58,283 bases of DNA, from positions 1-58,283 of the forward strand of contig JAXLYI010000006.1 of the NCBI GenBank assembly GCA_046351555.1. The letters are read 5' to 3'. The first letter of the stretch is position 1, and every line of letters begins with the position of its first letter. Source of the stretch: Polyangiales bacterium. Lineage in GTDB: Bacteria; Myxococcota_A; Polyangia; Polyangiales; Ga0077539. The notes beneath the pieces were generated by a model, which searched no databases, had not been told where the DNA came from, and saw only the letters and a program-made list of their open reading frames with translations. The translations under genes were made by a program, and so were the position numbers. Positions 3,700-54,451 of the stretch are shown one piece after another.

Positions 3700-5631
3700 T
3701 CACTGCGAGTCGAGCTGGCGGAGGAGCTCCTGCATCACGCCCTGCACGTCGGGGTCGGCGCCGTTGCCGCCCCCCGACGGGAGCCGCTGCGGCCCGCTGC
3801 CCGGCGCGATGCGCGTGGGCCCGCCGCCCGACGGCGCGCTCCCCCCCTGGTTCGTGAGCCCCTGGAGCAGCGGGCCGAGCATCTCGATCGCCTGCTGCAT
3901 CTCGGGCGAGGCGTTGCCGCCCATCACGCCCTGGAGCAGGGACGCCATGTTGGCCTGGCCGAGGTCGTCGTCGCCGTGCGACTCCTGGAGCCACCGGCGC
4001 GCGAGCCCGCGGTAGCGCGCGGCCCCGGCCCCGTGCTCGGCCACCAGCGCGTCGACGAAGCCCGCGGTCGGCGCCGTGCGGAAGCGCCACGTGTCGACGT
4101 AGCGCCGCACCGCGCGGAAGAAGACCTCGTCGCCCGCCGCCTCGCGCAGCGCGTTGTAGAGGTAGGGGCCCTTGCCGTAGACGATCCCGGCGTAGCGGAG
4201 CTGGTCGTTGAAGACGGCCGCGGGCCGGTCGACCGGGCCGTCGGGGCGCCCGAGCATCCGCATCATCTGGTAGTTCATGCGGATGTTCAGGTCGGCGTCG
4301 CGGCGCGATCGTTCGATACCGTACCGATCCTCGAGGTAGAGCGCGGCCGACCACTGGGCGAGCGACTCGTCGACGAAGGGGTGGAGCCGCGAGTCGCTCC
4401 CGACGAGGCCGTGCCAGTACTGGTGCGCCACCTCGTGGGCCGTCACGAACTCCAGCATCGCGGGCATCATCTGCCCCATCGCCTGCGTCGCCTCGCCCCC
4501 GCCGAGCAGGCCCATCAGGCCCCCCGCGAGGCCGTCCATCTGCGGCGGCTTGTAGAACATGCTCGCCACCGTCACGAGCCCCGGAAACTCCACGCCCCCC
4601 GCGCCGCCGACGAGGGGCGCCTCCACCACGTCGAGGTCGACGTAGGGGTACGGGCCGAAGCGCCGTTCGAAGTCCGCGAGCGCGGCGGCGGCGACGTCGA
4701 GCACCCGCTCGCCCGCCGCCTGGTCGTTGGGCAGGTAGTGCGAGCGCACCTCCACCTCGCCCACGCGCCGCGTCGACGTGCGCAGCGTCGCGCCGGCCAT
4801 CACGCAGAAGTCCCGCACCGCGGCGCCGCCCACCTCCAGCCGCTGCCGATCGTTCGCCACCGTACGACCGAGCGTCACGCCCGTGGTCGCCACGGTGTAC
4901 GACGCGGGCAGGTCGAGCACGGCGCGCACGTTGGCGAGGTCGTCGGAGCCGAGGTCGCCCGCGTGGCCGCCGTCGTCGCGCTCCCAGCGCGCGCCCACGC
5001 GCCGCCCGACCACCGCGTAGAAGTTGGCCATGCTCACGACGCCGTCGCCCACGGCGAGGAGCCCGTAGTCCCCCGACGACTCGCCCGCGCCGAGCATCGA
5101 GAGCGACTCCATCCCCTGCGCGAGGATGTTGGTGCGCGAGCCGTCGATCTCGTCGAGGCGCCCCTGGAGGTCGACCACGACCCGCAGCGACGCGCCCGGC
5201 GCGAGCGGCGCGCGCGGGCGGACGACGATCACCGACGGCGACTCCTGCCGCACCGTGCACGGCCCCGTCACGCAGCGCCCCGACACGAAGCGGACCGGCG
5301 CCTCCCCCTGCGCGCGGCGCGCGGCGTTGGCGTACACGCGGAGCACCACCTCGGGCATCGGCGCGCGCTCGTTGTTGGTGAACCAGAGCTCCTCCGCGAC
5401 GGAGAACGCCCGCTCGCCCTGCGCGAGCGAGACCGTGAGGCTGTAGAGCGGGAGCTGGTCGAGGCGCTGGAGGTGTGCGGCCGCGGGCAGGGCGTCGCGC
5501 GCCCAGGGACGGAGCGAGGGGAGGAGCTGCGCGGGGTCGTAGCGGGCGGCCGGGGGCGCGGGCTGGGCGCAGGCCGCCGCCGACGCGAGGAGGGCGGCGA
5601 GGCACGGGGGGAAGGCGGACTTCCAGCGCAT
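3700..5631 (-). CDS. Secreted M1-family zinc metallopeptidase (aminopeptidase N-like)
   Basis: Gluzincin motif HEVAHQYWH followed 19 aa later by the third zinc ligand E (DESLAQW). Signal peptide MRWKSAFPPCLAALLASAAACAQ. Start trimmed to the ATG at 5629-5631. Confidence 0.8.
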   Translation of the reverse strand: MRWKSAFPPCLAALLASAAACAQPAPPAARYDPAQLLPSLRPWARDALPAAAHLQRLDQLPLYSLTVSLAQGERAFSVAEELWFTNNERAPMPEVVLRVYANAARRAQGEAPVRFVSGRCVTGPCTVRQESPSVIVVRPRAPLAPGASLRVVVDLQGRLDEIDGSRTNILAQGMESLSMLGAGESSGDYGLLAVGDGVVSMANFYAVVGRRVGARWERDDGGHAGDLGSDDLANVRAVLDLPASYTVATTGVTLGRTVANDRQRLEVGGAAVRDFCVMAGATLRTSTRRVGEVEVRSHYLPNDQAAGERVLDVAAAALADFERRFGPYPYVDLDVVEAPLVGGAGGVEFPGLVTVASMFYKPPQMDGLAGGLMGLLGGGEATQAMGQMMPAMLEFVTAHEVAHQYWHGLVGSDSRLHPFVDESLAQWSAALYLEDRYGIERSRRDADLNIRMNYQMMRMLGRPDGPVDRPAAVFNDQLRYAGIVYGKGPYLYNALREAAGDEVFFRAVRRYVDTWRFRTAPTAGFVDALVAEHGAGAARYRGLARRWLQESHGDDDLGQANMASLLQGVMGGNASPEMQQAIEMLGPLLQGLTNQGGSAPSGGGPTRIAPGSGPQRLPSGGGNGADPDVQGVMQELLRQLDSQ

Positions 5632-5701
5632 GGTTCGCCGGTCGTACCACGGCGAACGGCCGTTGCGGGGCGGCGGGGCTTCGAAGTACACGGGCGGTCG
5701 C

Positions 5702-6739
5702 ATGGACGCCCCCCTCCACCTCCGCGCGCAGGCCGCCGCCGCCCGCGCGCTGCTCCGTCTCCCGCCCGAAGTCCTCGTCCGCCTCGCCGGCGGTGTGCCC
5801 CTGGCGAAGGACGGCTGCGTCCTCGACGCGCAGACGCAGATGCTCGCGTGGCTCGCGGCGCGGCTCGGGCGCGCGGGCCGGGGGCGCGGCGAGCTCGCGC
5901 ACGAGCGGAGGGAGTTCGACCGCGAGGCCGCGGCCTTCGTGCGGCGGCACAGCCCCCTCGCCTCGGTGCGCGACGAGCGCGTCAGCGCGAACATCCGCGC
6001 GCGGGTCTACCGCCCCCACGGGGCGCGGGCGAAGGGGCCGGCGGTGGTGTTCTTCCACGGCGGGGGCTTCGTGCTCGGGGGACTCGCGTCGCACGACCCC
6101 ATCTGCCGCGCGCTCGCGCACGACACGGGCTTCGCGGTGGTGGCGATCGACTACCGGCTCGCGCCCGAGCACCCCTTCCCCGCCGCCGCGGACGACGCGA
6201 CCGAGGCCTTCCGTTGGGTCGCCCGATCGGCCGACGCGCTCGACGTCGACCCCGCGCGCCTCGCGGTGGCGGGCGACAGCGCGGGCGGCAACCTCTCGGC
6301 CGTCGTGTGCCTCGACACGCGCGGCGACGCGGTGAGGCCGCGCTTCCAGGCCCTCGTCTACCCGGCCACCGACAGCACCTGGTCGTTCCCGTCGATGGAG
6401 ACGATGGCCACCGGGGGCCTGCTCGAGCGCGAAAGCGTGGGGTGGTTTCGCGGCTCCTACACGCCCGACCCCGCGATCTGGAAGCTCCCGCGCGTGTCGC
6501 CCTGGTTCGCCGACGACCTCGCGTCTTTGCCGCCCGCCCTCGTGCAGACGGCAGGCTTCGACCCGCTGCGCGACGAGGGCGAGGCCTACGGCGAGAGGCT
6601 TCGCGACGCGGGCGTGCCCGTCACGGTGAAGCGCTACCCCAGCCTCTCCCACGGCTACCTCAACGTCCTCGGCACCGTCACCGCCGTCGCCGAGCCCTGG
6701 GACGACCTCGTCGCCGCCCTCCAACAGCACCTCGCCTGA
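5702..6739 (+). CDS. Alpha/beta hydrolase fold-3 esterase/lipase (Aes/HSL family)
   Basis: Oxyanion-hole motif HGGGF and nucleophile motif GDSAGG, with a C-terminal catalytic His region (SHGY). Confidence 0.85.
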   Translation: MDAPLHLRAQAAAARALLRLPPEVLVRLAGGVPLAKDGCVLDAQTQMLAWLAARLGRAGRGRGELAHERREFDREAAAFVRRHSPLASVRDERVSANIRARVYRPHGARAKGPAVVFFHGGGFVLGGLASHDPICRALAHDTGFAVVAIDYRLAPEHPFPAAADDATEAFRWVARSADALDVDPARLAVAGDSAGGNLSAVVCLDTRGDAVRPRFQALVYPATDSTWSFPSMETMATGGLLERESVGWFRGSYTPDPAIWKLPRVSPWFADDLASLPPALVQTAGFDPLRDEGEAYGERLRDAGVPVTVKRYPSLSHGYLNVLGTVTAVAEPWDDLVAALQQHLA

Positions 6740-9345: not shown

Positions 9346-9394
9346 CAGCGCCCTCGGAGCCGGTGGGCTGCGAGGGCGCTGCGGGCCTTCAGGG

Positions 9395-9478
9395 TGCGAG
9401 CGAAAGGACTTGAACCTTCACGAGTGTTACCCCACTGGAACCTGAATCCAGCGCGTCTGCCAATTCCGCCACGCTCGC
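9395..9478 (-). tRNA. tRNA-Leu (anticodon CAG)
   Basis: Reverse complement reads GCGAGCGTGGCGGAATTGGCAGACGCGCTGGATTCAGGTTCCAGTGGGGTAACACTCGTGAAGGTTCAAGTCCTTTCGCTCGCA. The 7-bp acceptor stem GCGAGCG/CGCTCGC, anticodon stem-loop CTGGA-TTCAGGT-TCCAG, long variable arm and T-loop GGTTCAAGTCC are all present. Confidence 0.85.
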
Positions 9479-9523
9479 ATGCGTTCGGGGGAACGGAGGG
9501 GTACCGCCCGCGGGCGGTCGTTG

Positions 9524-18788: not shown

Positions 18789-19121
18789 GGGAGAACCTCC
18801 GCGTGCGATGGGAGCGCGCGCGTGGCGTTTGTGTCAAGGCGCAAGCGAGGGGGGAGAGAGCGGAGGGAGGCTCAGGGAGGAGGTGGCGCGGGCGCCAGGA
18901 GTCGAACCTGGATGATCTGAGTGGGATCGCGTGGGCGAGGACATCCGCCTCACCCCATCGTCACTCGGTTAATGACCGCAACATTGACTGTGTCGTGCGC
19001 TACCGTTACGCGACGCCCGCGGGGCGCCTACCGTAGCCTCCGCGGGGGCGGTCGCGCAAGCCACGCGCCGGATGTTTCTCCTACGCGCCGCGGGGTGCGC
19101 TTGTGGTGTACTCCGCGCGCC

Positions 19122-20066
19122 ATGGCCCGCACCCCCGCACGCCCCGCCGCGCCGCGCGGCCCCCTCGTCGACGTCGCCTGGCTCGCCGCGCACCTCGGCG
19201 ACCCGAAGCTCCGCGTCGTCGACCTTCGCTGGTACCTCTCCGGCAAGACGGGCGCGACCGCGTACGCGCAAGGGCACGTCCCCGGCGCGGTGTTCGTCGA
19301 CCTCGAGCGAGAGCTCACCGGGCCGGTGGGCGTGGGGCGCCACCCGATCCCCTCGCCCGCCCAGTTCGAACGGGCGATGCGCGCGGCGGGTGTTTCAAAC
19401 GACACGCGCGTGGTGGTGTACGACGACGCCGGCGGGAGCGTCGCGGCGCGCCTCTGGTGGCTGCTCACGGGCTACGGCCACGCGCGCGTCCACGTGCTCG
19501 ACGGAGGTTACCCCGCGTGGGTCGAGCAGGGCCGCCCGGTCGAGACGGAGCCCGCTGCGGTGGCGCCTGGGACGTTCACCGCGAAGACGGACGTGCAGCT
19601 CCCGGCGGTGGACCGGCACCTCGTCGACGCCGTGCGGGGGCGCAGCGGCTGGGTGGTGCTCGACGCGCGCGTGCCCGAGCGCTACCGCGGCGAGGTCGAG
19701 CCCATCGACGCGCGCCCCGGCCACATCCCCGGCGCGCGCAACGCGCCCTGGACGGGCAACCTCGACGGCGGCCGCTTCGCCGACGCGAAGGCCCTCCGCG
19801 CCCGCTACCGCAAGCTCGGCGTGGTGCCGGGCAAGACGGTGGTCTGCTACTGCGGCTCAGGCGTGACGGCCTGCCACGACGTCCTCGCGCTCGCCCTCTC
19901 GGGCATCTCGGCCATCCGCGTGAAGCTCTACGAGGGGAGCTGGAGCGACTGGGCCCGCGACCCCGACCGCCCCGCCGCCCTCGGCGACGAGCCCGCGCCC
20001 GCGCCGAAGCAGAAGCCCGTCGCGAAGAAGAAGCCCGCGAAGAAGAAGCCCGCCGCGCGGCGGTAG
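19122..20066 (+). CDS. sseA: 3-mercaptopyruvate/thiosulfate sulfurtransferase (tandem rhodanese domains)
   Basis: Two rhodanese domains with active-site loop CYCGSGVTAC (the CGSGVTA form typical of MST). Lys-rich C-terminal tail. Start trimmed to the ATG at 19122. Confidence 0.85.
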   Translation: MARTPARPAAPRGPLVDVAWLAAHLGDPKLRVVDLRWYLSGKTGATAYAQGHVPGAVFVDLERELTGPVGVGRHPIPSPAQFERAMRAAGVSNDTRVVVYDDAGGSVAARLWWLLTGYGHARVHVLDGGYPAWVEQGRPVETEPAAVAPGTFTAKTDVQLPAVDRHLVDAVRGRSGWVVLDARVPERYRGEVEPIDARPGHIPGARNAPWTGNLDGGRFADAKALRARYRKLGVVPGKTVVCYCGSGVTACHDVLALALSGISAIRVKLYEGSWSDWARDPDRPAALGDEPAPAPKQKPVAKKKPAKKKPAARR

Positions 20067-20074
20067 TCGCACCG

Positions 20075-21718
20075 ATGCGCCGCCTCGCGCTCGCGCCCTT
20101 CGTCCTCCTCGCGTGTCGACCGCGCCCGAGCGCGCCGCCCGACGCGCGAACGCCCTCGCACACCAACGCGCCCGCGCCCGCCGCGCCGCCCGACCCGTGC
20201 ACGGGCGTCGGCAACCCGACGGCCGTCCGCCTCCCGCCCGGCTTCTGCCTGCGCCCGGTGGCCACGGGGCTGCTGCGCCCGCGGCAGATGGCGCTCGCGC
20301 CCGACGGCAAGGTGCTCGTCGCGGAGTCGGGCCCGGGCTGGCGGCGCAACCGCGGGCGCGTCTCGCTGCTCACGCGTCGCGCCGACGGGGGCTTCGACGC
20401 GACGCCGCTCACAGGCGCGCTCGACCGGCCGCACGGCGTGGCCTTCCGCGACGGGCACGTGTGGGTGGCCGAGGCTGGGCGCGTCGCGCGCTTCCCGTAC
20501 CCCGCGGGCGACGCCGCGGCGCCGGAGACGGTGGTGGGCGAGCTCCCGAGCGATGGCCGTCACGTCCACAAGACGCTCGGATTCGCGCCCGACGGGTCGC
20601 TCTTCTTCTCCGTCGGCTCGGCCACCGACAACTGCCAGCGCGACCGCGCGCGCGAGGTCGACGACCCCTGCCCCGAGCGCGAGCCCGTCGCCCCCGCCGT
20701 CGAGCGCGGCGTCGTGATGCGCTGGGACGCGCGCCGCCGCGCCGCCTCCGTCTTCAGCCGCGGGCTGCGCAACAACACCGGCTTCGCGTGGCACCCCGCC
20801 TCCGGCCGCCTCTGGGGCGTCGAGAACGCTCGCGACTACATCGACCGCGCCGACCCGTCGCTCTCCGACGCCGCCCTCCCGCACGACGAGCTCAACGAGC
20901 TCACGCGCGGCAGCGACCACGGCTGGCCCTACTGCTATGACGCCGACGTCCCCGCGCCCGAGTACCGCGCCCACCCCGAGCGCTGCCGACGCGCCGTCGC
21001 ACCCGCGGTTCTCCTCCCGCCGCACTCGGCGCCGCTCGCGATCGCGTTCTACACGGGCGCGATGTTCCCTGCGGCGTACCAGGGGCGCGCGGTGATCACG
21101 TACCACGGGTATCGCGCCGAGGGTCACCGCGTGGTGAGCGTCCCCTTCGGCCCCGACGGCGCGCCTTCGGGCCCGCCGGAAGACCTCGTCTCCGGCTGGG
21201 AGGAGCGCCCCGGCCGACCGCACGGTCACCTCACCGGGCTCCTCGTCACGCCCGAAGGCTCGCTCCTCGTGAGCGACGACGTCGCAGGGACGATCTACGA
21301 GCTTCGCTACGGCGCGAGCGCCCTCCACGCGCCGCCCCCGGTCGTGGTGGCCCCACCGCCCGAAGACCCCGCCGCGGTCGAGCGCCGCTGCGCCTCCCTC
21401 GCGAACCGGCGCGACCTCCTCGCGGCGGTGCAACGCGACGTCGTCGACGCGAAGTGCGTGAGCTGCCACGCGGCGTCGGCGGGCGGGCTCCTCCTGCGCC
21501 GGTGCGACACGGCGACGACCTGGGAGTCGCTCGCCCGCGGCCGCTCGGCGGTGTACGGCCACTACGTGGTGCCCGGCGACGTACAGCGCGGCGTGCTGCT
21601 GGCGCGGCTCCGCGGCGATTCGATGGGGCCGCGGATGCCGATGCAGGGCGTCGAGCTCACGGCCGGAGAGCTCGACGCGGTGGTCCGCTGGGTCGAGGCC
21701 GGCGCGCCCGCGCCCTGA
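20075..21718 (+). CDS. PQQ-dependent soluble sugar (glucose/sorbosone) dehydrogenase-like beta-propeller fused to a C-terminal cytochrome c domain
   Basis: Signal peptide MRRLALAPFVLLAC. YliI/Asd-family propeller motifs (GFAPDGSLFFSVGS, RNNTGFAWHP, HGWPYCY). C-terminal haem-binding motif CVSCH. Confidence 0.75.
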   Translation: MRRLALAPFVLLACRPRPSAPPDARTPSHTNAPAPAAPPDPCTGVGNPTAVRLPPGFCLRPVATGLLRPRQMALAPDGKVLVAESGPGWRRNRGRVSLLTRRADGGFDATPLTGALDRPHGVAFRDGHVWVAEAGRVARFPYPAGDAAAPETVVGELPSDGRHVHKTLGFAPDGSLFFSVGSATDNCQRDRAREVDDPCPEREPVAPAVERGVVMRWDARRRAASVFSRGLRNNTGFAWHPASGRLWGVENARDYIDRADPSLSDAALPHDELNELTRGSDHGWPYCYDADVPAPEYRAHPERCRRAVAPAVLLPPHSAPLAIAFYTGAMFPAAYQGRAVITYHGYRAEGHRVVSVPFGPDGAPSGPPEDLVSGWEERPGRPHGHLTGLLVTPEGSLLVSDDVAGTIYELRYGASALHAPPPVVVAPPPEDPAAVERRCASLANRRDLLAAVQRDVVDAKCVSCHAASAGGLLLRRCDTATTWESLARGRSAVYGHYVVPGDVQRGVLLARLRGDSMGPRMPMQGVELTAGELDAVVRWVEAGAPAP

Positions 21719-21807
21719 AGGAGCGCGAGACGAAAGCGGTTCCCCCGCGGGGGCGCGGTCCGGTAGATTCGGGACGGCGCGCCTGCGCCGGCGAGGTCCC
21801 CGCGTCG

Positions 21808-22233
21808 ATGCTCACCTACCACCTCCACGAAGCCGACCTGCTCCTGCCCGACGGGGTCGTCGACAACACCGTCAACGCCTTCGTGCTCCCCGCGGAGGAC
21901 GGCGCGCCGCTCACCGTCGTCGTCACGCGCGACCCGAAGCCCGCCCGCGCCGACGCCTTCGGCTACGCCGACCACCTCCTCGTCGAGGCCGCGAAGCGCC
22001 TCCCCGGCTACGACCTCAAGGAGCGCGTCTCCGTCGTCGTCAGCCAGCAGCAGACCATCGAGGCCCGCTTCGCCTGGCGCACCCCCGAGGGCGCCGCCGT
22101 CGAGCAGCGCCAGGCCTTCGTCTTCCACCGCGGCGCCGCGATCATCTTCACCATGACCACGCGCGCCAACGACATGGACCGCGCCACCCCCCGCTGGCGC
22201 CAGGTGCTCGACTCCGTGCGCCTCCGCGCCTGA
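21808..22233 (+). CDS. DUF1795-like Eag-type T6SS effector chaperone
   Basis: 141-aa protein immediately upstream of a prePAAR effector. Size and position match EagR/EagT chaperones. Assigned by context and weak sequence recollection. Confidence 0.55.
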   Translation: MLTYHLHEADLLLPDGVVDNTVNAFVLPAEDGAPLTVVVTRDPKPARADAFGYADHLLVEAAKRLPGYDLKERVSVVVSQQQTIEARFAWRTPEGAAVEQRQAFVFHRGAAIIFTMTTRANDMDRATPRWRQVLDSVRLRA

Positions 22234-22253
22234 CCCACCCGCGAGGCGCGACG

Positions 22254-23516
22254 ATGGCCGAGGAGGAAGCCGCACGGTTCACCGACCCGATCACCCACGG
22301 GCTCGGCATGCTCGGGATGGTGGCCGGCGCCATCGCGGGCGCGGTGGTCGGCGCGGCCCTCATCGCCGGCGCGGTCGCCACCGGCGGCACGCTGCTCATC
22401 GCGATGTCGGTGTGCGCGGCGGGCGCCAGCGTCGCGGGCGGCGGCCTCGCGGGGGGCCAGCTCGCGCGCGGCATCGCGGCCGTGGCCAACCTCTCCCCCA
22501 CCACCGGCGCGCTCGGCTCGGGCTCGTGGGACACCTACGCCGTCGACCTCCGCAGCGCGCGCACCGTCGTCGACTTCGCCGCCGCGTGCCACGGGCTCTA
22601 CGGCGTCAACCACTTCCCGCTCACCCTGGTGCCCATCGCCGAGGGCTCGGCCACCGTCTTCATCAACGACCAGCACGCCTCGCGCGTGAAGGACAAGCTG
22701 GTGTGCGGCGCCGCCATCAAGGACGGCGCCGACACCGTGATCATCGGCGGCGACACCAAGCGCGTGCTCCCGGTGTACGACGCCGAGGCCGCGCTCGAGG
22801 AGGCGCTCAACGTCCTGCTGATGGGCTCGCTCGCGGGGATGTTCGTGCTGTCGTTCCCGCTGGGGATGACGGCGGAGCTGATCGCGGGCGTCGCGGTCTT
22901 CGCGGGCCTCAACGAGGGCGTCGGGTGGCTCGGCGACCAGATCGGCCCGGGCTGGCGCGACGTCTTCCAAGGCACCCTCGGCCTCGCCGCGCTCGGCGTC
23001 ACGGGGCGCACGGCCTTCCGCGAGCTCGCCAAGCCCAGGCCCTTCGAGCTCATCGAGACCTCGCAGGGCCCGCTCATCAACGGCCGCCCCGTGGAGCCCC
23101 CGAGCACCGCCGCCGCCGAGCGCAACTACCGCCCGCAGTCCGAGTGGGACACCGCGTACAAGAAGGTCAACCGCCGCGGCAACCTCGACTGGGACTGGCC
23201 GCCCGACCAGGGCTTCAAGGGCGGCGTCCCCCCCGAGCAGCCGCTGAAGCCCGGCACCCTCTTCGACCGCTACGGCGAGCCCAACGGAACCTTCGTCTCG
23301 CCCTACGGGACGCCCTTCGAAGCGCGCGCCCTCGCGCCCGACACCGTGGGCAAGCCCTACCGCGTCTACGAGGTCGTGAAGGAGATCCCCGCCCGCAGCG
23401 GCGAGATCGCGCCCGCCTTCGACCAGCCCGGCGGCGGCATCCAGCACAAGCTCGGGCAGACCGTCGAGGCCCTCGAAGCCGGGGGCTACGTCCGGCAGAT
23501 CTGGCCGCCGCCCTGA
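22254..23516 (+). CDS. T6SS prePAAR/PAAR effector with a C-terminal TNT (tuberculosis necrotizing toxin-like) NAD+ glycohydrolase domain
   Basis: prePAAR motif AARFTDPITH (AARxxDxxxH). Two Gly/Ala-rich TM regions flank a PAAR domain (TVFINDQHASRVKDKLVCGAA). C-terminal TNT signature PYRVYEV...GEIAPAFDQPGGGIQHKL. Confidence 0.8.
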   Translation: MAEEEAARFTDPITHGLGMLGMVAGAIAGAVVGAALIAGAVATGGTLLIAMSVCAAGASVAGGGLAGGQLARGIAAVANLSPTTGALGSGSWDTYAVDLRSARTVVDFAAACHGLYGVNHFPLTLVPIAEGSATVFINDQHASRVKDKLVCGAAIKDGADTVIIGGDTKRVLPVYDAEAALEEALNVLLMGSLAGMFVLSFPLGMTAELIAGVAVFAGLNEGVGWLGDQIGPGWRDVFQGTLGLAALGVTGRTAFRELAKPRPFELIETSQGPLINGRPVEPPSTAAAERNYRPQSEWDTAYKKVNRRGNLDWDWPPDQGFKGGVPPEQPLKPGTLFDRYGEPNGTFVSPYGTPFEARALAPDTVGKPYRVYEVVKEIPARSGEIAPAFDQPGGGIQHKLGQTVEALEAGGYVRQIWPPP

Positions 23517-23520
23517 CCGC

Positions 23521-23931
23521 TCAATGCGAGGGCGGGAGCCGCGCGCCGAAGGGCGGCAGCGGGCCCTCCGCGGCGACGTGGCGGCGCCACCAGAACTTCA
23601 CCAGCGCGATCCACGCGGACTCGAAGCGCCGCAGCACGCAGTAGCGCACGGCCTCCTCGCGGGTGGCGAAGCGCCCGACGAGCTCCTCCTCGCCGCGCTC
23701 GGCGCGGTGAACCGCCCACTGCGCCCCATCGGGGTCGACGAAGAGGTTGGGCACGGGCTCGCCGACGTCGCCGCGCGCCAGCACCGCCGCCACGCCGTCG
23801 CCGGGCGTCACGGAGACGAAGTCGTCGTAGTGCCGGTCGGCGAGCGAGACGCCCGGCGGGAGCTGCGCCCGCGCCCACGCCTCCGCGTCGCCTTCGAGGA
23901 TCACCCGGAGCTGCTCTTCCGCGCGCTGCAT
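23521..23931 (-). CDS. Hypothetical 137-aa protein (convergent with the TNT effector; candidate immunity protein or last gene of the TPR operon)
   Basis: Clean ORF starting MQRAEEQLRVILEGD. Its stop lies 4 nt from the effector gene stop. Co-oriented with the giant TPR gene 57 nt upstream. Confidence 0.45.
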   Translation of the reverse strand: MQRAEEQLRVILEGDAEAWARAQLPPGVSLADRHYDDFVSVTPGDGVAAVLARGDVGEPVPNLFVDPDGAQWAVHRAERGEEELVGRFATREEAVRYCVLRRFESAWIALVKFWWRRHVAAEGPLPPFGARLPPSH

Positions 23932-23987
23932 CGGGCGGTAGCTTCGCGTCCCGCGCGCGCCGCTGTCAACGACGCGCGATGCCTCCG

Positions 23988-26900
23988 TCAGAGCGCCCCA
24001 CGCGCCGCGTCGCGCACGGCTGCGTCGACGTCCTCGCGGGCCGCCCGCTCCAGCGCCGCCCGCACCGCCGGGTCGCCCGCCCGCCCCGCGAGCGAGCGCG
24101 CCGCCGCCGCCCGCACGAGCGAGAGCCTGTCGGTCGCGAGCGCGCGGGTGAGCGCCTCCACCGCGTCGTTGCCGCCGCCGTGGGCGAGGGCCTGCGCCGC
24201 ACGGAGCCGCGCCTCCCAGGGGGCCTCCGCGTCGAGGTGGCGCGCGACGCTCGCGGGGGCGTCGCCGTCGCCGCGCGAGGCCAGGGCCGCGAGCGCGTCC
24301 TCCGCGACGGAGGGGTCGTCGTCGCCCGCCGCGCGCGCCAGGGCCGCGGCCGCCTCGGGCGCGTCGCTCGCCGCGAGCACCGCCAGCGCGCGCCGCCGCA
24401 CGGCCACATCCGTGTGGGTCACCAGCCCCGCCAGCGACGGCGCCAGCGAACGAACCAGCGCGCGGGCCGCGGCCTCGCCCTCGGCGGACACCGCCGGCGC
24501 GTCCCCCGTGAGCGGGCCGAAGCGACCGGGGACCGCGAGCGCGTCGAGCACCCGGTCGACGCCCGCGGGCGACGCGAGCGCGGCGCGGGCGGCCTCGGCG
24601 ACGCGCGGCCCGTAACGCACCAGCGCGGCCTCGCCCCCGGCCAGCGGGCCCGGCGGCGCGATCACGCGGGCGAGCATCACGCCCGCCGACGCGGCGGCCT
24701 CGGGGTCGTCGAGCGCGCCCGGGCCCGACGTCTCGTCGCCCGACGCGAAGGCCGCGAGCCCGTGCGCGGCGACGCGTCGGAGCGGGAGGTCGCCGCCCAC
24801 CTGGCGCACGACCATCGGCGAGAAGAGCCCCGCCGCGAGGTCGTCGACGGCGCGATCGCGCAGGGCCGCGGGCACGCGTCCGAGCGCCGCGAGCGCCGCC
24901 GCGCGCGACCACTCGCCGTCGAGCAGCGACGCGCGGAAGCGGGTGACGAGCGCGGCGTCGGCGGTGGGGGCGAGCGCGAGCATCGCCGCGGTGGGGAGCC
25001 AGAGGTCGTTGCGCGCGTCGAGCGCGGACCGCAGCGCGGCGCGGGCGGCGGGGGCGCGGGCGCCGGTGAGCGCGAGCGCGGCCATCGCGGCGACCTCGGG
25101 CTGCGTGCGCTGGGCGACGAGGGCCGTGAGCGCGGCGGGCGAGGCGGGGGCGCGGGCGCGTCCGACGCCCCAGGCGGCGATCGTCGCGAGCGTCGGGTCG
25201 GTGCCGCGGGCGAGCGCGACGAGCCGCGGGAGCGCGCGCCCGTCGGCCACCGCGGCGGCGGCGCGGAGCGCGTCGATGCGGACCTCGTGGGGGGCGGTCC
25301 CCTCGGCGACGGTGAGGAGGGCCGCGGCCGCGTTGGGGTTGCCGAGGTACCCGAGGATCTCCAGCGACACGCGCCGCCGGGCCTCGTCGTTGTCGGCGAG
25401 GGTGTCGAGCAGGGGCTTGAGCGCGCGGGCCCCCATGCGGGTGAGCTCGGCGCGGGCGCGCGCGCGGGCCTCGGCGTCGCCGTGGCGGAGCGCGTGGACG
25501 AGCGGGCGGCACGTGGCGGCGTAGAGGTCGACGAGCAGGCGGCGGAGCACCACGCGGGCGGGCGACGCGGCGGAGGCGGCGGAGAGGTCGCGCTCGAGGT
25601 CGGGGAGGGCGCCGGCGGCGGGCGCGATCTGGATGGCGAGACGTCCCGCGCGGGCGACGAGCTCGTCGTCGGGCGCGAGGCGGATCACCCGGCGGAAGAG
25701 CTCGACGGCCTCGCGCGACTCGTCGCGCGCGAGGTCGAGGTCGGCGAGCTGGAAGTACGTCGGGAAGAGCCGGTCGTTGAGCGCCAGCGCCCGGCGGAAC
25801 GACGCCGCCGCCTGCCCCGCGTCGTTGCGCGCCCGGTAGAGCTCGCCGAGGCGCAGGTGCCCGTTGGCGTCGTCGGGGTTGAGCTCCACCGCGCGGGCGG
25901 CGCTCTCCAGGGCCTCGGCGTCGCGGTGGAGCGCGAGCGCGTGGGCCGCGAGCCGCTGGTGCCACTCGCGCGCGTGCCGGGGGTCGGCCTCGACCAGCCG
26001 CCGCAGCACGTCGATCGCGCCCGCGAGGTCGCCGCGCTGCGTGCGCATCCGCTCGAGCACCGAGAGCGTGGTGACGTCGCCGGGCTCGGCCTCGACCAAT
26101 CGCACGAGCACGCGCTCGGCGTCGTCGAGCCGGCGCGTGCGGGCGTAGGCCTCGGCGAGGTCGCGGCCGGCTTCGAGGTCGGGCGGCGTGGCGGAGAACG
26201 CACGCTCCAGGGCGGGGATGCGCTCGGCGAGGCGGTCGGTGAGGTTCCAGAGGTTGACGATGCGGGCGCGGGCCTCGCGGCGGAGCTCGCGGTCGTCGCG
26301 GGAGAGCTCGATGACGCGGCGCCACGCGGCGATGGCGGGGTCGAACATCCGCAGCGCCTCGGCCACCACCGCGAGCCCCTTGTGGTACTCGAGCTCGTCG
26401 GGGCGCGCGTCGATCGCCTCGCGGTAGAGCGCCATCGCCTGCGGGCCCATGTCGTGGCGCGCGTACACCTCGGCGAGGGCCGCGGCGCCGCGGGCCCGGT
26501 CGCGCGCCCGCTCGCGGATGCGGGCCCACGTGGCGAGGGCGCGGTCGCGGTCGCCGGCCTCCATCTGCCGCTCGCCGAGGGCCTCCAATGCGGCCGGGTC
26601 GGAGGGGTCGTAGCGCGCGACGAGCTCGGTCTCACGGAGCGCGGCGGCCTGCTCACCCAACCGGGCGTACGCCTGGGCGAGGCGCTCGTGCATGTCGACG
26701 TCGGCGCCGGCCCGCGCGCTGGCCTGCGCGAGCGCGGCGAGGGCCTCGGCGCGGCGGCCGGCGCGCACGAGGTCGTCGGCGAGGTCGGTGACGTAGGTCG
26801 GGTTGCGCGGCGCGGCGGCGGCGAGACGTCTCCGCGCGGCGACGAGCTCTTCGAAGCGGGCGCTCTGCGCGAGGAGCTGGACGAGCTGGACGAGCGCGTC

Positions 26901-28073
26901 GACGTCCCCGGGGCGCAGCGCGGCGGCGCGGCGGTAGGCGGCGACGGCCTGGTCGGCGCGGCCCTGCTCGGCGTGGAGGCGGCCGAGGAGCATCTGGCGC
27001 TCCCAGCTCCCCGCACCCTGGCGCGCGAGCTCCTGGATCCATCCGTCGAGGTCGCGGCGGCGCGTGTGGAGCTCGGTGAGGTCGTCGAGGAGCTCGCGGC
27101 GCACGCCCGTCCCCGCGCCCGCGAGGGCGAGCGCGCGGCGGAAGGTGGCGAGCGCCTCGTCGAGCTGGTTGGCCTGCATCTGCGCGCGGCCGAGGTCGCG
27201 TAGCACCGGCGGCAGCACCCGGTTGTCCCCCGCCAGCGCCCGCGTCAGCGCCTGGAACTCCCCGATCGCCTCCGCATACAACCGCCGCGCGACGAGGGCG
27301 TCGGCGAGCTCGCGGCGCACCGAGGCGCTCGCGGGCGACGCGGCGACGAGGCGCTGGTGCCACGACCGCGCGCGGGCGACGTCGCCCGAGGCGAGCGAGA
27401 GGTCGACGAGCGCGCGCAGGACGTCGCCGCGGCGGTCGGCGCGGAGCCCGAGGCCGAGGGCGCGCTCGTAGGCGGCGAGGGCGTCGGGGGCGCGGCCCAT
27501 CTGGCGGAGCGTGTCGGCGAGGGCGAGCTGCGGGGCGGGCGCGTTGGGCGCGGCGGCGGCGGCGCGCTGGTAGCGGGCGACGGCCTCGTCGAGGCGCCCG
27601 TTCTGCCGCTGGACGTGCCCGAGGAGGAGGAGCGCCCCGACCGCGTCGGCGCCCGGCGCGGCGGCGCGGCGCTCGAGGTCGGCGGTGAGGGCGTCGAGGT
27701 TGCCGTCGCGCTCGCGAACGAGTCGGAGCAGCGTGGGGAGGGCGACGGCGTTCTCGTCGTCGCCGCGGAGGAGCACCGCGAGGAGGTGCTCGATCATGCG
27801 GCGGTTGCGGTCGGTGTCGCTCGCGGGCGCGGCGGTCGGCGGGGCGCTCGGGGGCGGCGGCGCGGGCTGCGCGGTGGGCGCGGGGCGCGTCGGGCGCACG
27901 GGGGATGGGCGTACGGGACCGGGGCGCACAGGGCCGGGGCGTGCGGGGCGCGACGGGCGGGCCGGGCGCGAAGGGCGGGCGGGGCCGACGTCCCAGTCCT
28001 GCGCGGCGGCCGGCGGGGCGGCGAGCGCGAGGGCGACGAGCGCGAGGGCCGTGGGGAGCGGGCGTCGGGTCAT
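23988..28073 (-). CDS. Secreted giant TPR/HEAT-repeat protein
   Basis: Signal peptide MTRRPLPTALALVALALAAPPAAAQ. A Pro-rich region, then more than 25 TPR-like repeats and C-terminal HEAT/PBS-lyase-like repeats (VRRRALAVLAASDAPEA...). 1362 aa. Confidence 0.75.
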   Translation of the reverse strand: MTRRPLPTALALVALALAAPPAAAQDWDVGPARPSRPARPSRPARPGPVRPGPVRPSPVRPTRPAPTAQPAPPPPSAPPTAAPASDTDRNRRMIEHLLAVLLRGDDENAVALPTLLRLVRERDGNLDALTADLERRAAAPGADAVGALLLLGHVQRQNGRLDEAVARYQRAAAAAPNAPAPQLALADTLRQMGRAPDALAAYERALGLGLRADRRGDVLRALVDLSLASGDVARARSWHQRLVAASPASASVRRELADALVARRLYAEAIGEFQALTRALAGDNRVLPPVLRDLGRAQMQANQLDEALATFRRALALAGAGTGVRRELLDDLTELHTRRRDLDGWIQELARQGAGSWERQMLLGRLHAEQGRADQAVAAYRRAAALRPGDVDALVQLVQLLAQSARFEELVAARRRLAAAAPRNPTYVTDLADDLVRAGRRAEALAALAQASARAGADVDMHERLAQAYARLGEQAAALRETELVARYDPSDPAALEALGERQMEAGDRDRALATWARIRERARDRARGAAALAEVYARHDMGPQAMALYREAIDARPDELEYHKGLAVVAEALRMFDPAIAAWRRVIELSRDDRELRREARARIVNLWNLTDRLAERIPALERAFSATPPDLEAGRDLAEAYARTRRLDDAERVLVRLVEAEPGDVTTLSVLERMRTQRGDLAGAIDVLRRLVEADPRHAREWHQRLAAHALALHRDAEALESAARAVELNPDDANGHLRLGELYRARNDAGQAAASFRRALALNDRLFPTYFQLADLDLARDESREAVELFRRVIRLAPDDELVARAGRLAIQIAPAAGALPDLERDLSAASAASPARVVLRRLLVDLYAATCRPLVHALRHGDAEARARARAELTRMGARALKPLLDTLADNDEARRRVSLEILGYLGNPNAAAALLTVAEGTAPHEVRIDALRAAAAVADGRALPRLVALARGTDPTLATIAAWGVGRARAPASPAALTALVAQRTQPEVAAMAALALTGARAPAARAALRSALDARNDLWLPTAAMLALAPTADAALVTRFRASLLDGEWSRAAALAALGRVPAALRDRAVDDLAAGLFSPMVVRQVGGDLPLRRVAAHGLAAFASGDETSGPGALDDPEAAASAGVMLARVIAPPGPLAGGEAALVRYGPRVAEAARAALASPAGVDRVLDALAVPGRFGPLTGDAPAVSAEGEAAARALVRSLAPSLAGLVTHTDVAVRRRALAVLAASDAPEAAAALARAAGDDDPSVAEDALAALASRGDGDAPASVARHLDAEAPWEARLRAAQALAHGGGNDAVEALTRALATDRLSLVRAAAARSLAGRAGDPAVRAALERAAREDVDAAVRDAARGAL

Positions 28074-28346
28074 CGTTCGCCGCGGAGGATAGCCTACGGC
28101 GGAGGTGCGGGGCGAACCCGTGGGACGTGTCGTTGGTTTCACGCCGGCCTTGAAAACCCGTCGGGCGCCGTCGCCCGGGGAGAGCCTCGGCCACGATGCC
28201 GGAGCACGTCGGGCGAACCCTGGCGACGGCTTCCCGCACGAACGATCCCTCCGTCGGGATCACGTCGGCGGAATCGGACGAGTCGCCCTCAACCACCCAC
28301 GGCTTCGCGCGATCCGCCGGTGTTTCGCCGCACCGTCGCCTTCGCG

Positions 28347-28431
28347 ACCGCCGGGGACGCGGGACGTCGCCGACGTCTCGCCCTCGCGGCCGCCGGGGAC
28401 GCGGGACGTCGCCGACGTCTCGCCTTCGCCC
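28347..28431. repeat. Two direct tandem copies of a ~42-nt unit in the intergenic region upstream of the TPR gene
   Basis: Reads GACCGCCGGGGACGCGGGACGTCGCCGACGTCTCGCC(C/T)TCGC twice in succession. Confidence 0.6.
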
Positions 28432-28534
28432 GGCGCGATGTCCGCGGTTCGGAACAGGCGCTTCGACCGCCCTGCCCCAGCCCGGCGCGCCCACGGGCTA
28501 CGCGGTGTCGCGACGCCCGCGGCGCACGACCGCA

Positions 28535-29422
28535 TCAGGGCCACAGCGGCGCGATCGCCGACGGGAGGGGCGTGTCGTGGTCGGGGTACGCGTCGCAGCC
28601 GCGGAGGTCTCGGCGCCTCTCTCCCCACGGGCAGGCCGCCGCTCCCACGAAATCGTCTCCCCAGCCGAAGGCGCTCTCTTCGAACCGACGGCACAGCGCC
28701 TCGACGCGGAGCTCGGTCGGACCCGCGCCAGGCAGCCCGTCGAGCAACGGCCCTAGATCGTCGACGGGGTTCTCCGGCGAAGGTCCCGCGTACAGCCAGC
28801 GGAGCGCCCGATGAAGGGACTCGAACAGGTACTGGCCGTGGTCGACGCCCGCGACGTCGCAGCGCGCCACCGAATCGCGGATGAATTCGTCGATCCTCCG
28901 GCGGAGCGCGCGGACGCACCCCACGACCACGGCAGGTGGAAGCGCGGGCGGCGACGGGCGCGACAGCAGGTCGGATGGGCGCAACGCACCGACCACGCGG
29001 ACGTGAACACCCGTACCGGCCGAGCGCACGCCCGGGTCTTGATAGAGCTCGATGCGCGTCGGGAGCGCGTCCGCGCGGAACATCGTGCGCGCGAGGACGC
29101 GCTCGGTCGGCAGCGCGGGGCCCGACGGGAAGCAAGGGTGCGCCACCTCCAGATGAACTTGGAGATGGCGCTCGCCTGAACCGCCCGGCGCTCGCAGCAT
29201 GACGTAGGCCGGCAGCGGGGCCCGGCGTTCGGCGTCATCGAAGACGAACGTGGGGCCGCCGTCGACCGTCACGATCATGCGCCGCAGGCGGAGCGGCGGC
29301 TCCAGGTGGCTCACCAGCGGCACGGCGTCGGGCGGCAGCGGCCTGCGCAGCGTCTCCTGCGGCTGCGCGACGCACGCGGCGAGCGCGATCCCGGCGGCCA
29401 AAGCGTGGCGCGCGGCCCTCAT
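28535..29422 (-). CDS. Hypothetical lipoprotein
   Basis: Signal peptide/lipobox MRAARHALAAGIALAAC and several Cys residues. No recognisable domain. Confidence 0.5.
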   Translation of the reverse strand: MRAARHALAAGIALAACVAQPQETLRRPLPPDAVPLVSHLEPPLRLRRMIVTVDGGPTFVFDDAERRAPLPAYVMLRAPGGSGERHLQVHLEVAHPCFPSGPALPTERVLARTMFRADALPTRIELYQDPGVRSAGTGVHVRVVGALRPSDLLSRPSPPALPPAVVVGCVRALRRRIDEFIRDSVARCDVAGVDHGQYLFESLHRALRWLYAGPSPENPVDDLGPLLDGLPGAGPTELRVEALCRRFEESAFGWGDDFVGAAACPWGERRRDLRGCDAYPDHDTPLPSAIAPLWP

Positions 29423-51218: not shown

Positions 51219-53344
51219 TCAGTACGGCCCGAGGAAGCGCTCGCCGTTGAAGTGTATCATGTGGGTCGGGGCGTCGGCGCACCACACCTCGGTAAGCACC
51301 GGCACCCGCGACATCTCCCGCTCCTTCGCGTAGCGGGCGCGGAGCGTCTCCACCGTGGCCAGCCACCGCGCGAGCGCGCCGCTCCAACGCGCCGTCCCAT
51401 AGCGTTGGAGCACGGCGAGCACCCCCGGCTCGATCTGGTAGACCGCCTTGGGGCTGTTGGTCGGGCGCGACCGGTCGTCGGGGTTCTCCAGCGCGACCCC
51501 CGCGGCGACGAACCGGTGGACGGTGAAGCGCCGCACCGTCTCCCGCGTGTTGGGCGCGTACACCTTCCCGTAGCTCCGCTCGAAGAACTGCATCATCGGC
51601 GTGATCCCCATGAGCGGCGCCGACGCCTCCGCCCAGGGACGCTCCGCCGTCAGGTCGACGAGCGCGAGGAGCGTGAGCGCCGACCGCTCGTTCTGCTGCT
51701 CGCGCGGCAGTCCGATGGCCTCCAACACGGACAGGGCCTCGTCGATGCGACGCCTCGCCGCCACCGGGTCGATGGCCGTTGGTTTCTTGTCTCCCATACG
51801 AAACAACACCTCGTCCACGGCGCGATCGACCGCCCCTTGCGTGGCGAGCGACTTCCCCGCGGCATCGCCGAGCGCCTCGAGCTGTGCGCGGGTCGGGTAC
51901 GGCATCTTGCGGAGGTCGGTCGCGTTCACCTGCGTGTGCCCGCTCCAGGCGCGGAAATGCGCGTCGACGAGCGTCGAGTTGAGCCACACCGTCAGCCCGC
52001 GCGCGAGCCGCTCGGGCACCCCAGCGCCGTCGCAATGGAACACGTTGAGGTGGTTTTCGAACCCGACGCGCCCCCGCGCGACCGCCGCCGGTTCGTAGAG
52101 GGCGGCGACGATGCGGCGCGGCTCCTCCTTCGAGGAGAAGCGCTTCGTCAAGACGTAGGTGCCCTCCGGCAGCAGGAGGGCGGCGGTCTCCGCGTTGTCG
52201 TCGATCGCGTTGGGCTTGCGCGATCCCTCGCGCGGCCACGCCACCCCTCCGCCCGCGAGGTGCAGCGGGTAGATGAGCGGGGCCGTGGTGCGCGCCGGTC
52301 GGTCGTGGAGGTGGGCGCGGGCGCGGAAGTCCACCACGCGGCCGGTCGACGCCTGGAGCCCGAGGTCGGCGAGCGTCGAGCGGAACGTCGCCATCCGCTC
52401 GCTCACGGCGCCGCCGAGTCCGTCGGACACGATGTGGACGATGCGTTCGGGGTCGTCGGGTCGCACGACCTCCGCGAAGGGAACCTCCCGCACGAGCGGC
52501 GCAGGGTCCTCGGGGCAGGTCGCCGACGAGACCGTGACGCGCCCGCGCGGCGCCCCGTCCTTCACCGCGTGGAAGATCACGGTCTCCTGGAGCACGTCGT
52601 CGTCGGCGAAGGCGCGGTCACGCCGCTCGAAGACGTGGAGCCGCAGGAGCCTCATGCGCGCGAGGAAGCGCTCGCGGAAGGGGCGGAAGTAGGGGCCGTT
52701 GCAGAAGCTCCGCGGGGTGATGGCGACCAAGCTCGCCGCCGGGCTCGAGCAGGTCGACCGCGACCGCGAGGAAGGCCGTGTGGAGGTTGCTCGTCTCGAG
52801 GCCGATCCGCTGGAGCGCGCGCCTCGGGCGAGTCCGCGCGGATCTTGTGTTACGGCGGGTTGAGGATCGCGGCGTTGAAGGCGCCTCGCTGCGTCGCGAA
52901 GAGGCCGCCGTCGAGCGCGCCCACCCCCGAGGCGATGAAGTTTTCGACGTGGACCCGGGCCTCGACCCGGAGGCCGGCGGCCGCGCCGTGCTCCTCGCAC
53001 GCGGTGAGCGTCTCGCGCAGGTACCGCGCGAGCGTCGGGTCGACCTCCCACGCGTCGACCGTGATGGATGTCGGGCGCGCGGGACGTCCGGCGAACGCCT
53101 CGACGGCAGCGGCGGTGAGTGCGCCGACACCAGCGCCCGCGTCGAGCAGGCGGACCTCCGCCGCGTCGGTTCGCAGGAGCGATGCCATGAACGACGCCAC
53201 CGCCGCGGGGGTCATGTACTGCCCGAGCTCGGCCCGCCGCGCCGGGGAGAGCTGGCGCATGGCGTCGACGCGCGCCACGTCGGCGACCTCGCCGGGGTGG
53301 CGGCCCGATGCGAGGAGGGAGGTGGCGAAGCCGGGTTTGCGCAT
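51219..53344 (-). pseudogene. Eco57I-family (gamma-class, NPPY) N6-adenine DNA methyltransferase, inactivated by an in-frame TAA and two frameshifts
   Basis: Motif I LLDAGAGVGAL and motif IV FNAAILNPP are followed directly by TAA. The downstream conserved blocks KIRADSPEARA / ALQRIGLETSNLHTAFLAVAVDLLEPGGEL / VAITPRSFCNGPYFRPFRERFL sit in three different frames. The junctions imply an indel in a GCGCGC run and a 1-nt insertion. Confidence 0.65.
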
Positions 53345-53407
53345 GGGGAGCGGCCGAGGCGCACGCTGCCCGAGGCGGGGCCGCGGGTCAACGGATCGGC
53401 GCGCCCC

Positions 53408-54451
53408 TCACCAGGTGTCGGGGAAGTTGCCGCGCGACATCGGCTGCGGCGGCGGCTTCGGCACGGCGACCGCGTCGGCGGCCTTCTTGCGGATCACCTG
53501 CGTCCCCTCCTGCTTGAGCGTCTTGATGGGGCCCTTCACCCACGAGCCCGGGCCCGACACCGCGCCGATCGCGCCCTGCACGCCGTCGCCGATCTTCTGC
53601 CCCATCTCGGGCGACGCGCCGAGGTACTCCGCGCCCGCGCCGATCGCCTGCGACGTGTACGTGCGCTGCGGCACGCCCGTCCAGATCTGCTTCACCGCGG
53701 CCCAGCCCCGGTCGCCCGCGTTGGCGATGAGCGCGCCGCCCGCCACCTGCCCGACGCCCGTCGGCGTCGACGCGAGCCCGACGCCCACCGTCCCCTGCCC
53801 CACCGCGCCCGCGAGGTCGATGCCGCCCGCGACGCGCGGGTACGCCGCGCGGAAGTCCTGGTAGCGCCCCCACGTCTGCCGCATCCCGTACTGCGCCAGC
53901 GACTCGTTGGGACGGCGCGCGAACGACGACGGCTCCTGCGCCGGCTGCTGCGGCTGCGCGGGCTGCTCAGGGGGCTGCGCCGCGGCCTGCTCCTGCGGCG
54001 TCTCGGGCTTCGGCTCGGGGTTCGGGTCGCTCTTCGGCTTGCCGTCCTCGCCGACCTCGTTGGTGGGCTCCGTCCCCTCGTCGAACACCGCCTTGCCCTT
54101 GGTGTTCTTGTCGTTCATCTCGTGCTCGTCCTTGTGACGAATCACGTTCTGGCCCTCGGCGCGCACCGTGGGGGAGTGCTCGACGGGCTCGGTCTTGCCG
54201 CCGCCCGCGTGGGTGCCCGACACCACGCCCTCGCCCGTGCCGCCCTCGTCGCCCTCGACGCCCTGGATGTAGCTCTGCTTCGTGAAGACGCACTGGTTGG
54301 TGGCCCGCACCGTCGGCGTCACCATGCAGGCGTTCTGGTACACCGACACGATCTGGTAGGGCACCGGCGCCGTCGGCGACTTGCAGACGTCGGGGTAGCT
54401 GCTCACGACGAGCGCGCGGGGCGTCTTGCGGGTGAGTTCGAGCTCGCTCAC
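53408..54451 (-). CDS. T6SS PAAR-like (DUF4150) effector with a Pro/Glu/Gln-rich linker and a glycine-zipper-rich C-terminal domain
   Basis: N-terminal DUF4150 pattern YPDVCKSP...GDEGGTGEGVVSGTHAGGGKTEPVEHSPTVRAEGQNVIRHKDEHEMNDKN. C-terminal GxxxG-rich segment (AGAVGQGTVGVGLA, GVGQVAGGALIANAG, AIGAGAEYLGA, GDGVQGAIGAVSG). Confidence 0.7.
   Translation of the reverse strand: MSELELTRKTPRALVVSSYPDVCKSPTAPVPYQIVSVYQNACMVTPTVRATNQCVFTKQSYIQGVEGDEGGTGEGVVSGTHAGGGKTEPVEHSPTVRAEGQNVIRHKDEHEMNDKNTKGKAVFDEGTEPTNEVGEDGKPKSDPNPEPKPETPQEQAAAQPPEQPAQPQQPAQEPSSFARRPNESLAQYGMRQTWGRYQDFRAAYPRVAGGIDLAGAVGQGTVGVGLASTPTGVGQVAGGALIANAGDRGWAAVKQIWTGVPQRTYTSQAIGAGAEYLGASPEMGQKIGDGVQGAIGAVSGPGSWVKGPIKTLKQEGTQVIRKKAADAVAVPKPPPQPMSRGNFPDTW

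Follow-up and report, generated by a model that had tools for sequence, protein, structure and literature searches.

A type VI secretion prePAAR effector with a TNT NAD+ glycohydrolase domain and its probable immunity gene in convergent orientation in a soil myxobacterium

Among type VI secretion system (T6SS) effectors, Tse6 and Tas1 are encoded by genes that are co-directional with their respective immunity genes. In the EagT6-Tse6-Tsi6 and Tas1-Tis1 systems (P. aeruginosa; PA14), an Eag gene lies immediately upstream of the effector gene, and the effector, a class II prePAAR protein of about 420-450 aa, is organized as a prePAAR motif, a first transmembrane region (TMD1), a PAAR domain, a second transmembrane region (TMD2) and a cytoplasmic toxin. 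The same organization was found at positions 21808-23931 of a 58,283-nt stretch of DNA from a soil myxobacterium (Polyangiales, about 75% guanine plus cytosine, GC), which is referred to as the window throughout and in which a module of three genes, for an Eag-type chaperone, a prePAAR effector and a small protein of 136 aa, was analysed. The toxin domain here belongs to the TNT/Ntox40 type, in contrast to the Tse6 (Tne1) and (p)ppApp-synthetase types; neither Tsi6 nor Tis1 is related to the putative immunity protein, which is encoded convergently, and no vgrG gene is adjacent in the window. Tse6 itself is an NAD(P)+ glycohydrolase (PMC10539506). On the basis of sequence comparison, the module is predicted with good confidence to be a self-contained T6SS effector-immunity system in which the small protein is the cognate immunity protein. 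It is in most respects a conventional system composed of a T6SS prePAAR effector, an Eag chaperone and an immunity protein; what is non-standard is the conserved convergent orientation of the immunity gene, and an immunity family that is uncurated and has no relative of solved structure.

The T6SS pair Rhs1CT(SJC1036)-RhsI1(1036) of Serratia marcescens ('Tne4', PMC10539506) resembles the module in that its toxin is a TNT NADase with the same Arg/Phe/Gln active site, and in that its immunity protein is small and cytosolic, has a previously unreported fold and occurs in orphan copies; it differs in its class I Rhs cage delivery and in its 124-aa immunity family, which is unrelated and encoded co-directionally downstream. 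An identity of the small protein with the RhsI1(1036) type was considered and rejected, as the Enterobacter homologue (L016:953-1324) shows no similarity, and none of Tsi6, Tni2 and RhsI1 was among the fold matches listed for the small protein. CpnT of M. tuberculosis with its TNT-IFT pair (Rv3903c/Rv3902c) is comparable in having a toxin of the same family (PF14021) and a dedicated cytosolic neutralizing protein; assignment of the small protein to IFT (Rv3902c) was rejected, since neither its sequence nor its fold is similar. Imm63, with the signature 'E + G', is reported to be the characteristic immunity partner of Ntox40/TNT toxins (PMC3482391, PMC9503650). In Ntox40-Imm63 pairs, for example gp34/gp33 of mycobacteriophage phiT46-1, the toxin likewise has next to it an immunity protein of alpha+beta type, about 130 aa long and with E-[R]-G on a beta-hairpin, but these pairs are linked to the type VII secretion system and WXG proteins, their immunity gene is co-directional, and their similarity to the family of the small protein is sub-threshold.

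The Eag gene (21808-22233, + strand, 141 aa, DUF1795/DcrB type) was identified by a full-length match to Pfam PF08786 (DcrB, E 9.7e-22), and its stop codon is separated by 20 nt from the start of the effector gene (22254-23516, + strand), which encodes a class II-like prePAAR-PAAR effector of 420 aa with a C-terminal TNT NAD+ glycohydrolase domain. The small open reading frame (ORF) (23521-23931, - strand, 136 aa plus stop codon), predicted to encode the cognate immunity protein, is convergent to the effector gene, with exactly 4 nt (23517-23520) between the two stop codons. Third-position GC was 0.96-0.99 in all three ORFs, which in a genome of about 75% GC marks all of them as real genes. 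Past the effector no plausible gene was found on the same strand; the small ORF comes next and then a 1384-aa TPR/HEAT gene, both on the minus strand. An earlier note on this DNA had proposed an Eag chaperone, a prePAAR effector with two transmembrane regions around a PAAR domain and a C-terminal TNT NADase domain, and the lack of a same-strand ORF after the effector, all of which were borne out; of its convergent 137-aa ORF with a stop 4 nt away, the orientation and the gap stand, whereas the length was corrected to 136 aa, as the figure of 137 counts the stop codon.

The TNT domain (Ntox40, PF14021; residues 331-416, 23244-23501, + strand) was detected by Pfam at E 6.5e-29, with a score of 100.7 bits against a cut-off of 27 and coverage of profile positions 2-88 of 88, and was also matched to the fungal NADase 8r17_A (E 6.8e-16). 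Residues R129, F137 and Q194 of AfNADase are the equivalents of R757, Y765 and Q822 of TNT, respectively (PMC10539506), and were aligned by HMMER, using 6yge_B, with R339, F347 and Q397 of the effector. The question raised in the earlier note, whether the catalytic residues of TNT are present, is thus answered in the affirmative; these three residues were also kept in all 12 related TNT domains aligned. Since the NAD-binding and catalytic residues are intact, the TNT domain is predicted to be a catalytically competent NADase.

For the small protein, no match was obtained in Pfam, NCBIfam or PDB. A word-indexed homology search with its sequence returned two near-identical relatives only, and a repeat of the search with the family profile returned seven only. 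The family came to light through the inspection of gene neighbours and through HMMER, run exhaustively against 1.84 billion cluster representatives. A convergent 147-aa gene was present beside each distant prePAAR-TNT effector inspected (effectors 31-44% identical), its products being 41-43% identical to the small protein, and the exhaustive search gave 31 matches at E <= 1e-3, about 25 being credible, with lengths of 137-162 aa. The small protein belongs to a family that is genuine but rare and uncurated and comprises about 25 clusters. The closer family alignment, used as a query for locus searching, gave 2 genome loci and 1 metagenome locus, and plasmids searched by tblastn with the small protein yielded no match. 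Two members are of unusual length: P0056 (254 aa) has an extra C-terminal extension of about 110 residues, and in P0070 (202 aa) a hydrophobic N-terminal region is joined to what corresponds to the C-terminal half of a P0051-like protein, a fusion that may be a gene-call artefact.

The neighbourhood of the family was surveyed with hidden Markov models and queries derived from the window genes, which were run against six-frame translations of every fetched locus. The family adjoins TNT genes in nine lineages. In eight independent lineages (the window with L001-L003, L004, L005-7, L008, L014/L021, L015, L020 and L022), the small gene is convergent to the TNT-domain gene, with 3-84 nt from stop to stop, and this tail-to-tail layout of antidote and toxin is kept in every close relative examined; only in the ninth (L013) are the genes co-directional. 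The other flank of the small gene varies: the window has the TPR gene there and L001 (small protein 82% identical) an ABC transporter gene; L005 and L020 have a DUF2169 gene, L004 has a gene for 183 aa, and L008 and L021 have divergent genes. These flanks bear on the explanation that the adjacency is incidental, that is, that the 136-aa gene belongs with the minus-strand TPR/HEAT neighbourhood and has a function unrelated to the toxin. The TPR gene and the small gene do share a strand, the latter lying downstream at a distance of only 56 nt, so that co-transcription is possible; but the 82%-identical orthologue follows the ABC transporter gene, with similarity of the upstream DNA only from about 40 nt before the ATG, and across seven further lineages the neighbour on that strand changes again, with the convergent TNT gene remaining in place. 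Incidental adjacency is largely refuted by these comparative data and is regarded as scarcely credible. The point raised in the earlier note, whether the small gene goes with the TPR gene, is thereby settled in favour of the TNT gene as the constant partner.

Delivery scaffolds vary as well. In L015, a metagenome-assembled genome (MAG) of Myxococcaceae, the TNT protein lacks the prePAAR scaffold and is encoded after a DUF2169 adaptor gene, and the small gene is convergent there too. That locus (L015:6451-8826, - strand) was also noted for its TNT protein of 291 aa without prePAAR, PAAR or Eag, whose N-terminal 200 residues gave no Pfam match and may form a different T6SS loading domain. A locus in which the scaffold is kept and the toxin exchanged served as a control (L030): an N-terminal scaffold 51% identical to that of the effector carries an EndoU toxin, and the gene downstream is unrelated to the family, encodes 136 aa and is co-directional at a distance of 13 nt. 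Thus, from the varied flanks, scaffolds and lineages together with this control, the family tracks the TNT domain, and neither scaffold, flank nor lineage; by the same comparison, the convergent orientation is to be seen as a property of a TNT-immunity cassette. Genes following other TNT toxins (plasmids of Bacillus, Agrobacterium and Rhodococcus; Enterobacter) were examined and are unrelated to the family, with no Pfam match.

In the co-directional lineage (L013:2-4097 and 4166-5888), an Rhs protein with a C-terminal TNT domain is followed by two tandem, co-directional and divergent family members (P0065 and P0079), which occupy the canonical immunity or poly-immunity position. Beyond them, three small ORFs without a Pfam match and an insertion sequence (rve) transposase were observed in this genome of about 55% GC, and the whole looks like a poly-immunity array. 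Family copies without a TNT neighbour were found in five loci (L009:5001-6600, L010, L011, L012:3409-3885 and L019:1529-1966), in a manner typical of orphan immunity genes. Low-GC genomes (38-44% GC) are among those with orphan copies, and in L009-11 three small unannotated ORFs come after the copy.

These two kinds of loci also bear on the explanation that the small protein is an accessory of the effector (a co-chaperone, an activator or a stabilizer of the TNT domain) rather than its inhibitor, the true immunity gene being located elsewhere. Such a role would agree with a convergent orientation that departs from the usual immunity layout and with the lack of above-threshold homology to known immunity families, and the tight linkage to TNT would suit any partner binding that domain. 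Against it, tandem duplication after the Rhs-TNT gene (L013) and toxin-less orphans (L009-12, L019) are the behaviour of immunity genes, no other conserved small ORF accompanied the effector in any effector locus inspected, and the module already has a dedicated chaperone in Eag; an accessory role is accordingly held to be improbable. Taken together, the linkage to TNT, the varied flanks, the position in L013, the orphan copies and the contrast with L030 indicate that the small gene is very probably the cognate immunity gene. It lies immediately adjacent to the toxin gene and follows the TNT domain instead of the flanks, and it departs from the co-directional downstream position in the window and seven other lineages. 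Of the two options left in the earlier note, an unusually placed immunity gene or one encoded elsewhere, the results favour the former, with a placement that is conserved across relatives. A literature search for descriptions of T6SS immunity genes in such a convergent layout yielded nothing of relevance.

Several observations weigh against the assignment as an immunity gene within a T6SS module. The convergent placement is atypical for T6SS immunity genes. Matches of the family to curated immunity families all stay below threshold, and among solved immunity proteins none matches the modelled fold significantly. The pairwise identities of the TNT domains and of the small proteins are correlated (r = 0.89, 11 loci), which fits co-evolution, but linkage or co-inheritance alone predicts the same. 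Within the 58-kb window, no vgrG (by tblastn) or T6SS core gene was found; in the sense that vgrG is absent, the module is an orphan, the term used for it in the earlier note. No consensus sites for a sigma-70 promoter or an intrinsic terminator were found at 21500-24300. When the family was compared by hhalign with authentic Imm63 proteins, encoded by mycobacteriophages and by a Mycobacterium plasmid (aligned region '...YYERGQ'), the probability was 9.6-12.6% and P about 0.002-0.003 over 44-46 columns including the ERG hairpin, and hmmsearch gave about 5 bits.

The last comparison concerns the explanation under which the small protein would belong to the Imm63 superfamily as a divergent branch, in which case the module would be an ordinary TNT-Imm63 pair differing only in orientation. 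PF15599 (Imm63) was the top or only Pfam match in 5 of the 26 members (best E 0.0072, 16.9 bits, profile positions 1-47), the weak matches covering the hairpin/ERG region; the invariant ERG (E78-R79-G80) agrees with the published signature (PMC3482391), and the alpha+beta model and the adjacency to a TNT gene are as in Imm63, the partner described for this toxin (PMC9503650). Both hhalign and hmmsearch aligned the helix, the beta-hairpin and the 'YxERG' of the genuine phiT46-1 Imm63 to the same region of the family. On the other hand, all of these scores are sub-threshold, 16.9 bits standing against a gathering score of 26.7, the window protein itself gave no match, and the family has an extra N-terminal helical region of about 40 residues and a different C-terminus. 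Descent from Imm63 is therefore quite possible, short of being the expected outcome. A distant relationship is plausible from the shared ERG motif but is not supported statistically, and membership is not claimed. The explanation concerns ancestry and not function, and is compatible with the small protein being the immunity protein of the module.

For the fold of the small protein, a confident AlphaFold2 model was made from 23 sequences (predicted local distance difference test score, pLDDT, 94.7), which supersedes a model made from 3 sequences (pLDDT 67). In this model, N-terminal helices lead into an antiparallel beta-meander of four strands, after which a long helix makes up the C-terminus. 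Residues Q7, G54 and R79 are invariant in the family alignment and L12, D37, E78, G80, A94 and L110 nearly so; R79 is the sole invariant basic residue of the family, and the last two strands are connected by a turn made of E78-R79-G80, which is the tip of the beta-hairpin. No signal peptide, transmembrane or other hydrophobic segment was found in the small protein, which is therefore predicted to be cytosolic, matching a toxin that would act in the cytoplasm. Unrelated immunity proteins of NADases have in common that a basic residue is inserted into the catalytic centre (PMC10539506), and because of this precedent, its invariance as the only basic residue and its position at the hairpin tip, R79 is proposed as the candidate blocking residue.

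A mechanism may be outlined by analogy with Tse6 and Tas1 (PMC7773334). In the producer cell, the Eag chaperone would shield and stabilize both transmembrane regions of the effector, and the prePAAR motif and the PAAR domain would load it on a VgrG spike whose gene lies elsewhere in the genome. Once the T6SS has fired, these transmembrane regions would carry the TNT domain across the target cell's inner membrane, where it would hydrolyse NAD(P)+ in the cytoplasm and growth would stop. In sibling cells, the 136-aa protein would bind the TNT domain and occlude its active site, with the invariant Arg79 on the tip of the ERG hairpin as a plausible blocking residue. Being transcribed from the opposite strand with a conserved upstream region of its own, the immunity gene would be uncoupled from effector expression, and the TNT domain and the convergent immunity gene could form one cassette that is placed on different delivery scaffolds.

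The 56-nt region upstream of the small gene (23932-23987, - strand) contains GTTGACAGCGGCG, with TTGACAG at 23963-23969. This stretch is common to the window, L001 and L002 despite non-homologous upstream genes (TPR vs ABC transporter) and reads GTTGACAGCGGCG...GAAGCT in the window and L001, the similarity between the window and L001 beginning only about 40 nt before the ATG of the small gene. Four loci (L004:3613-3665, - strand; L008:6336-6388, - strand; L014:5948-6000, + strand; L021:5101-5153, - strand) have in common another leader, analogous but different in sequence and about 50 nt long (TCGACAG...GATACGCT...ATG), which in all of them reads TCGACAG...GGCGAGAGGACGATACGCTC. In L005 and L020, the small gene instead comes after the DUF2169 gene and has a GGAG Shine-Dalgarno sequence. 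These comparisons suggest that the small gene carries its own promoter or leader within the cassette. A very short gap from the -10-like element to the ATG was seen in the leaders, which hints at a leaderless or near-leaderless transcript. For a hairpin over both stop codons, folding was on a par with that of shuffled sequence (z = -0.03).

The 3-84 nt between the stop codons would allow convergent transcription, or transcripts overlapping at their 3' ends, to tune the ratio of toxin to immunity protein. If so, such tuning would keep immunity on while the effector operon is silent and damp read-through from the effector gene. This belongs to a more far-reaching proposal, in which a mobile cassette is made up of the TNT domain and the immunity gene placed tail-to-tail with it, the convergence is functional and no accident, the cassette carries its own promoter or leader, and an undescribed fold plugs TNT NADases through the arginine of ERG; as a whole, this proposal is speculative and rather doubtful.

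The scaffold of the effector was assigned as follows. The protein is identical to P0003, an NCBI protein from a MAG ('glycohydrolase toxin TNT-related protein [Polyangiales bacterium]') encoded on a 534-kb contig. In class II effectors, which are about 450 aa long, the prePAAR motif AARxxDxxxH is expected within roughly the first 15 residues (Ahmad et al. 2020, PMC7773334), and the regular expression AAR..D...H matches at residue 6 as AARFTDPITH (residues 6-15, 22269-22298, + strand), with a weak match to Pfam prePAAR_I (E 0.008). Hydropathy (Kyte-Doolittle, 19-residue windows >=1.4) gave the two transmembrane regions: the first at about residues 13-67 (22290-22454, + strand; maximum 2.23), which aligns with TMD1 of Tas1, and the second at about residues 180-227 (22791-22934, + strand), followed by a Gly-rich motif. 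Between them, the PAAR domain spans about residues 110-165 (22581-22748, + strand), as Pfam PF05488 covers 110-155 (28.0 bits vs a cut-off of 27, E 2.6e-6) and NCBIfam T6SS_PAAR_dom 128-165 (partial). The Gly-rich motif, GVGWLGDQIGPGWRD (residues 222-236), aligns with LGDRLGPGYRD of Tas1 and is a near variant of the class II motif GxxxxGxxLxGxxxD, the strict regular expression of which has no match in the effector. Residues 22-253 match Tas1 (PDB 6ox6_A) at E 6.3e-39, and no RHS match was found by Pfam in the 420 aa. With its N-terminal motif, a PAAR domain between two transmembrane regions, the lack of an Rhs cage and an adjacent cognate Eag gene, the protein shares these features with class II prePAAR effectors. 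Homologous Eag genes lie directly upstream of the effector gene in L002, L004, L005, L008, L014 and L020-22, and vgrG lies directly upstream of the Eag gene in L005, L008, L014 and L021. The DNA encoding the two transmembrane regions contains a 62-nt direct repeat, 71% identical (22310-22371 vs 22859-22920, + strand), which probably reflects their common Gly/Ala-rich composition and is compatible with an ancient internal duplication of the transmembrane region.

Pipelines for the discovery of effector-immunity pairs, like most manual annotation, take the next co-directional ORF to be the immunity gene, and a whole clade of T6SS NADase effectors departs consistently from this layout; these effectors would therefore be labelled as lacking immunity. 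The family of about 25 clusters represents likely inhibitors of TNT-type NADases, an enzyme class that includes the necrotizing toxin of M. tuberculosis and the surface NADases of fungi, and a new inhibitory scaffold would be of structural and possibly of practical interest. The loci compared would also provide a clean case of a toxin-immunity cassette exchanged among scaffolds (prePAAR class II, DUF2169-linked and Rhs), with the orientation kept or changed.

As for the surroundings of the module, a GSDH-like dehydrogenase gene (20075-21718) lies upstream of the Eag gene, and the upstream neighbour of the small ORF is the gene for the 1384-aa TPR/HEAT protein (23988-28142, - strand). No Rfam family was matched across 19000-29000, and no tRNA gene was found near the module, the sole one in the window being at 9392-9479. 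A search for direct or inverted repeats flanking the module gave only GC-rich noise, so nothing points to a mobile element with discrete ends. About 30 kb away lies a second T6SS auxiliary module (52850-55476, - strand). It consists of a DUF2169 adaptor gene (54448-55476, - strand, E 4e-85), a gene for a Tox-PAAR-like (PF13665) effector of 347 aa (53408-54451, - strand), the C-terminal portion of which (about 230 aa) has no assignment, and, co-directional after the effector gene, a 164-aa ORF (52850-53344, - strand) without a Pfam match, which is likely the immunity gene of that module. Genes for isocitrate lyase and malate synthase adjoin this second module.

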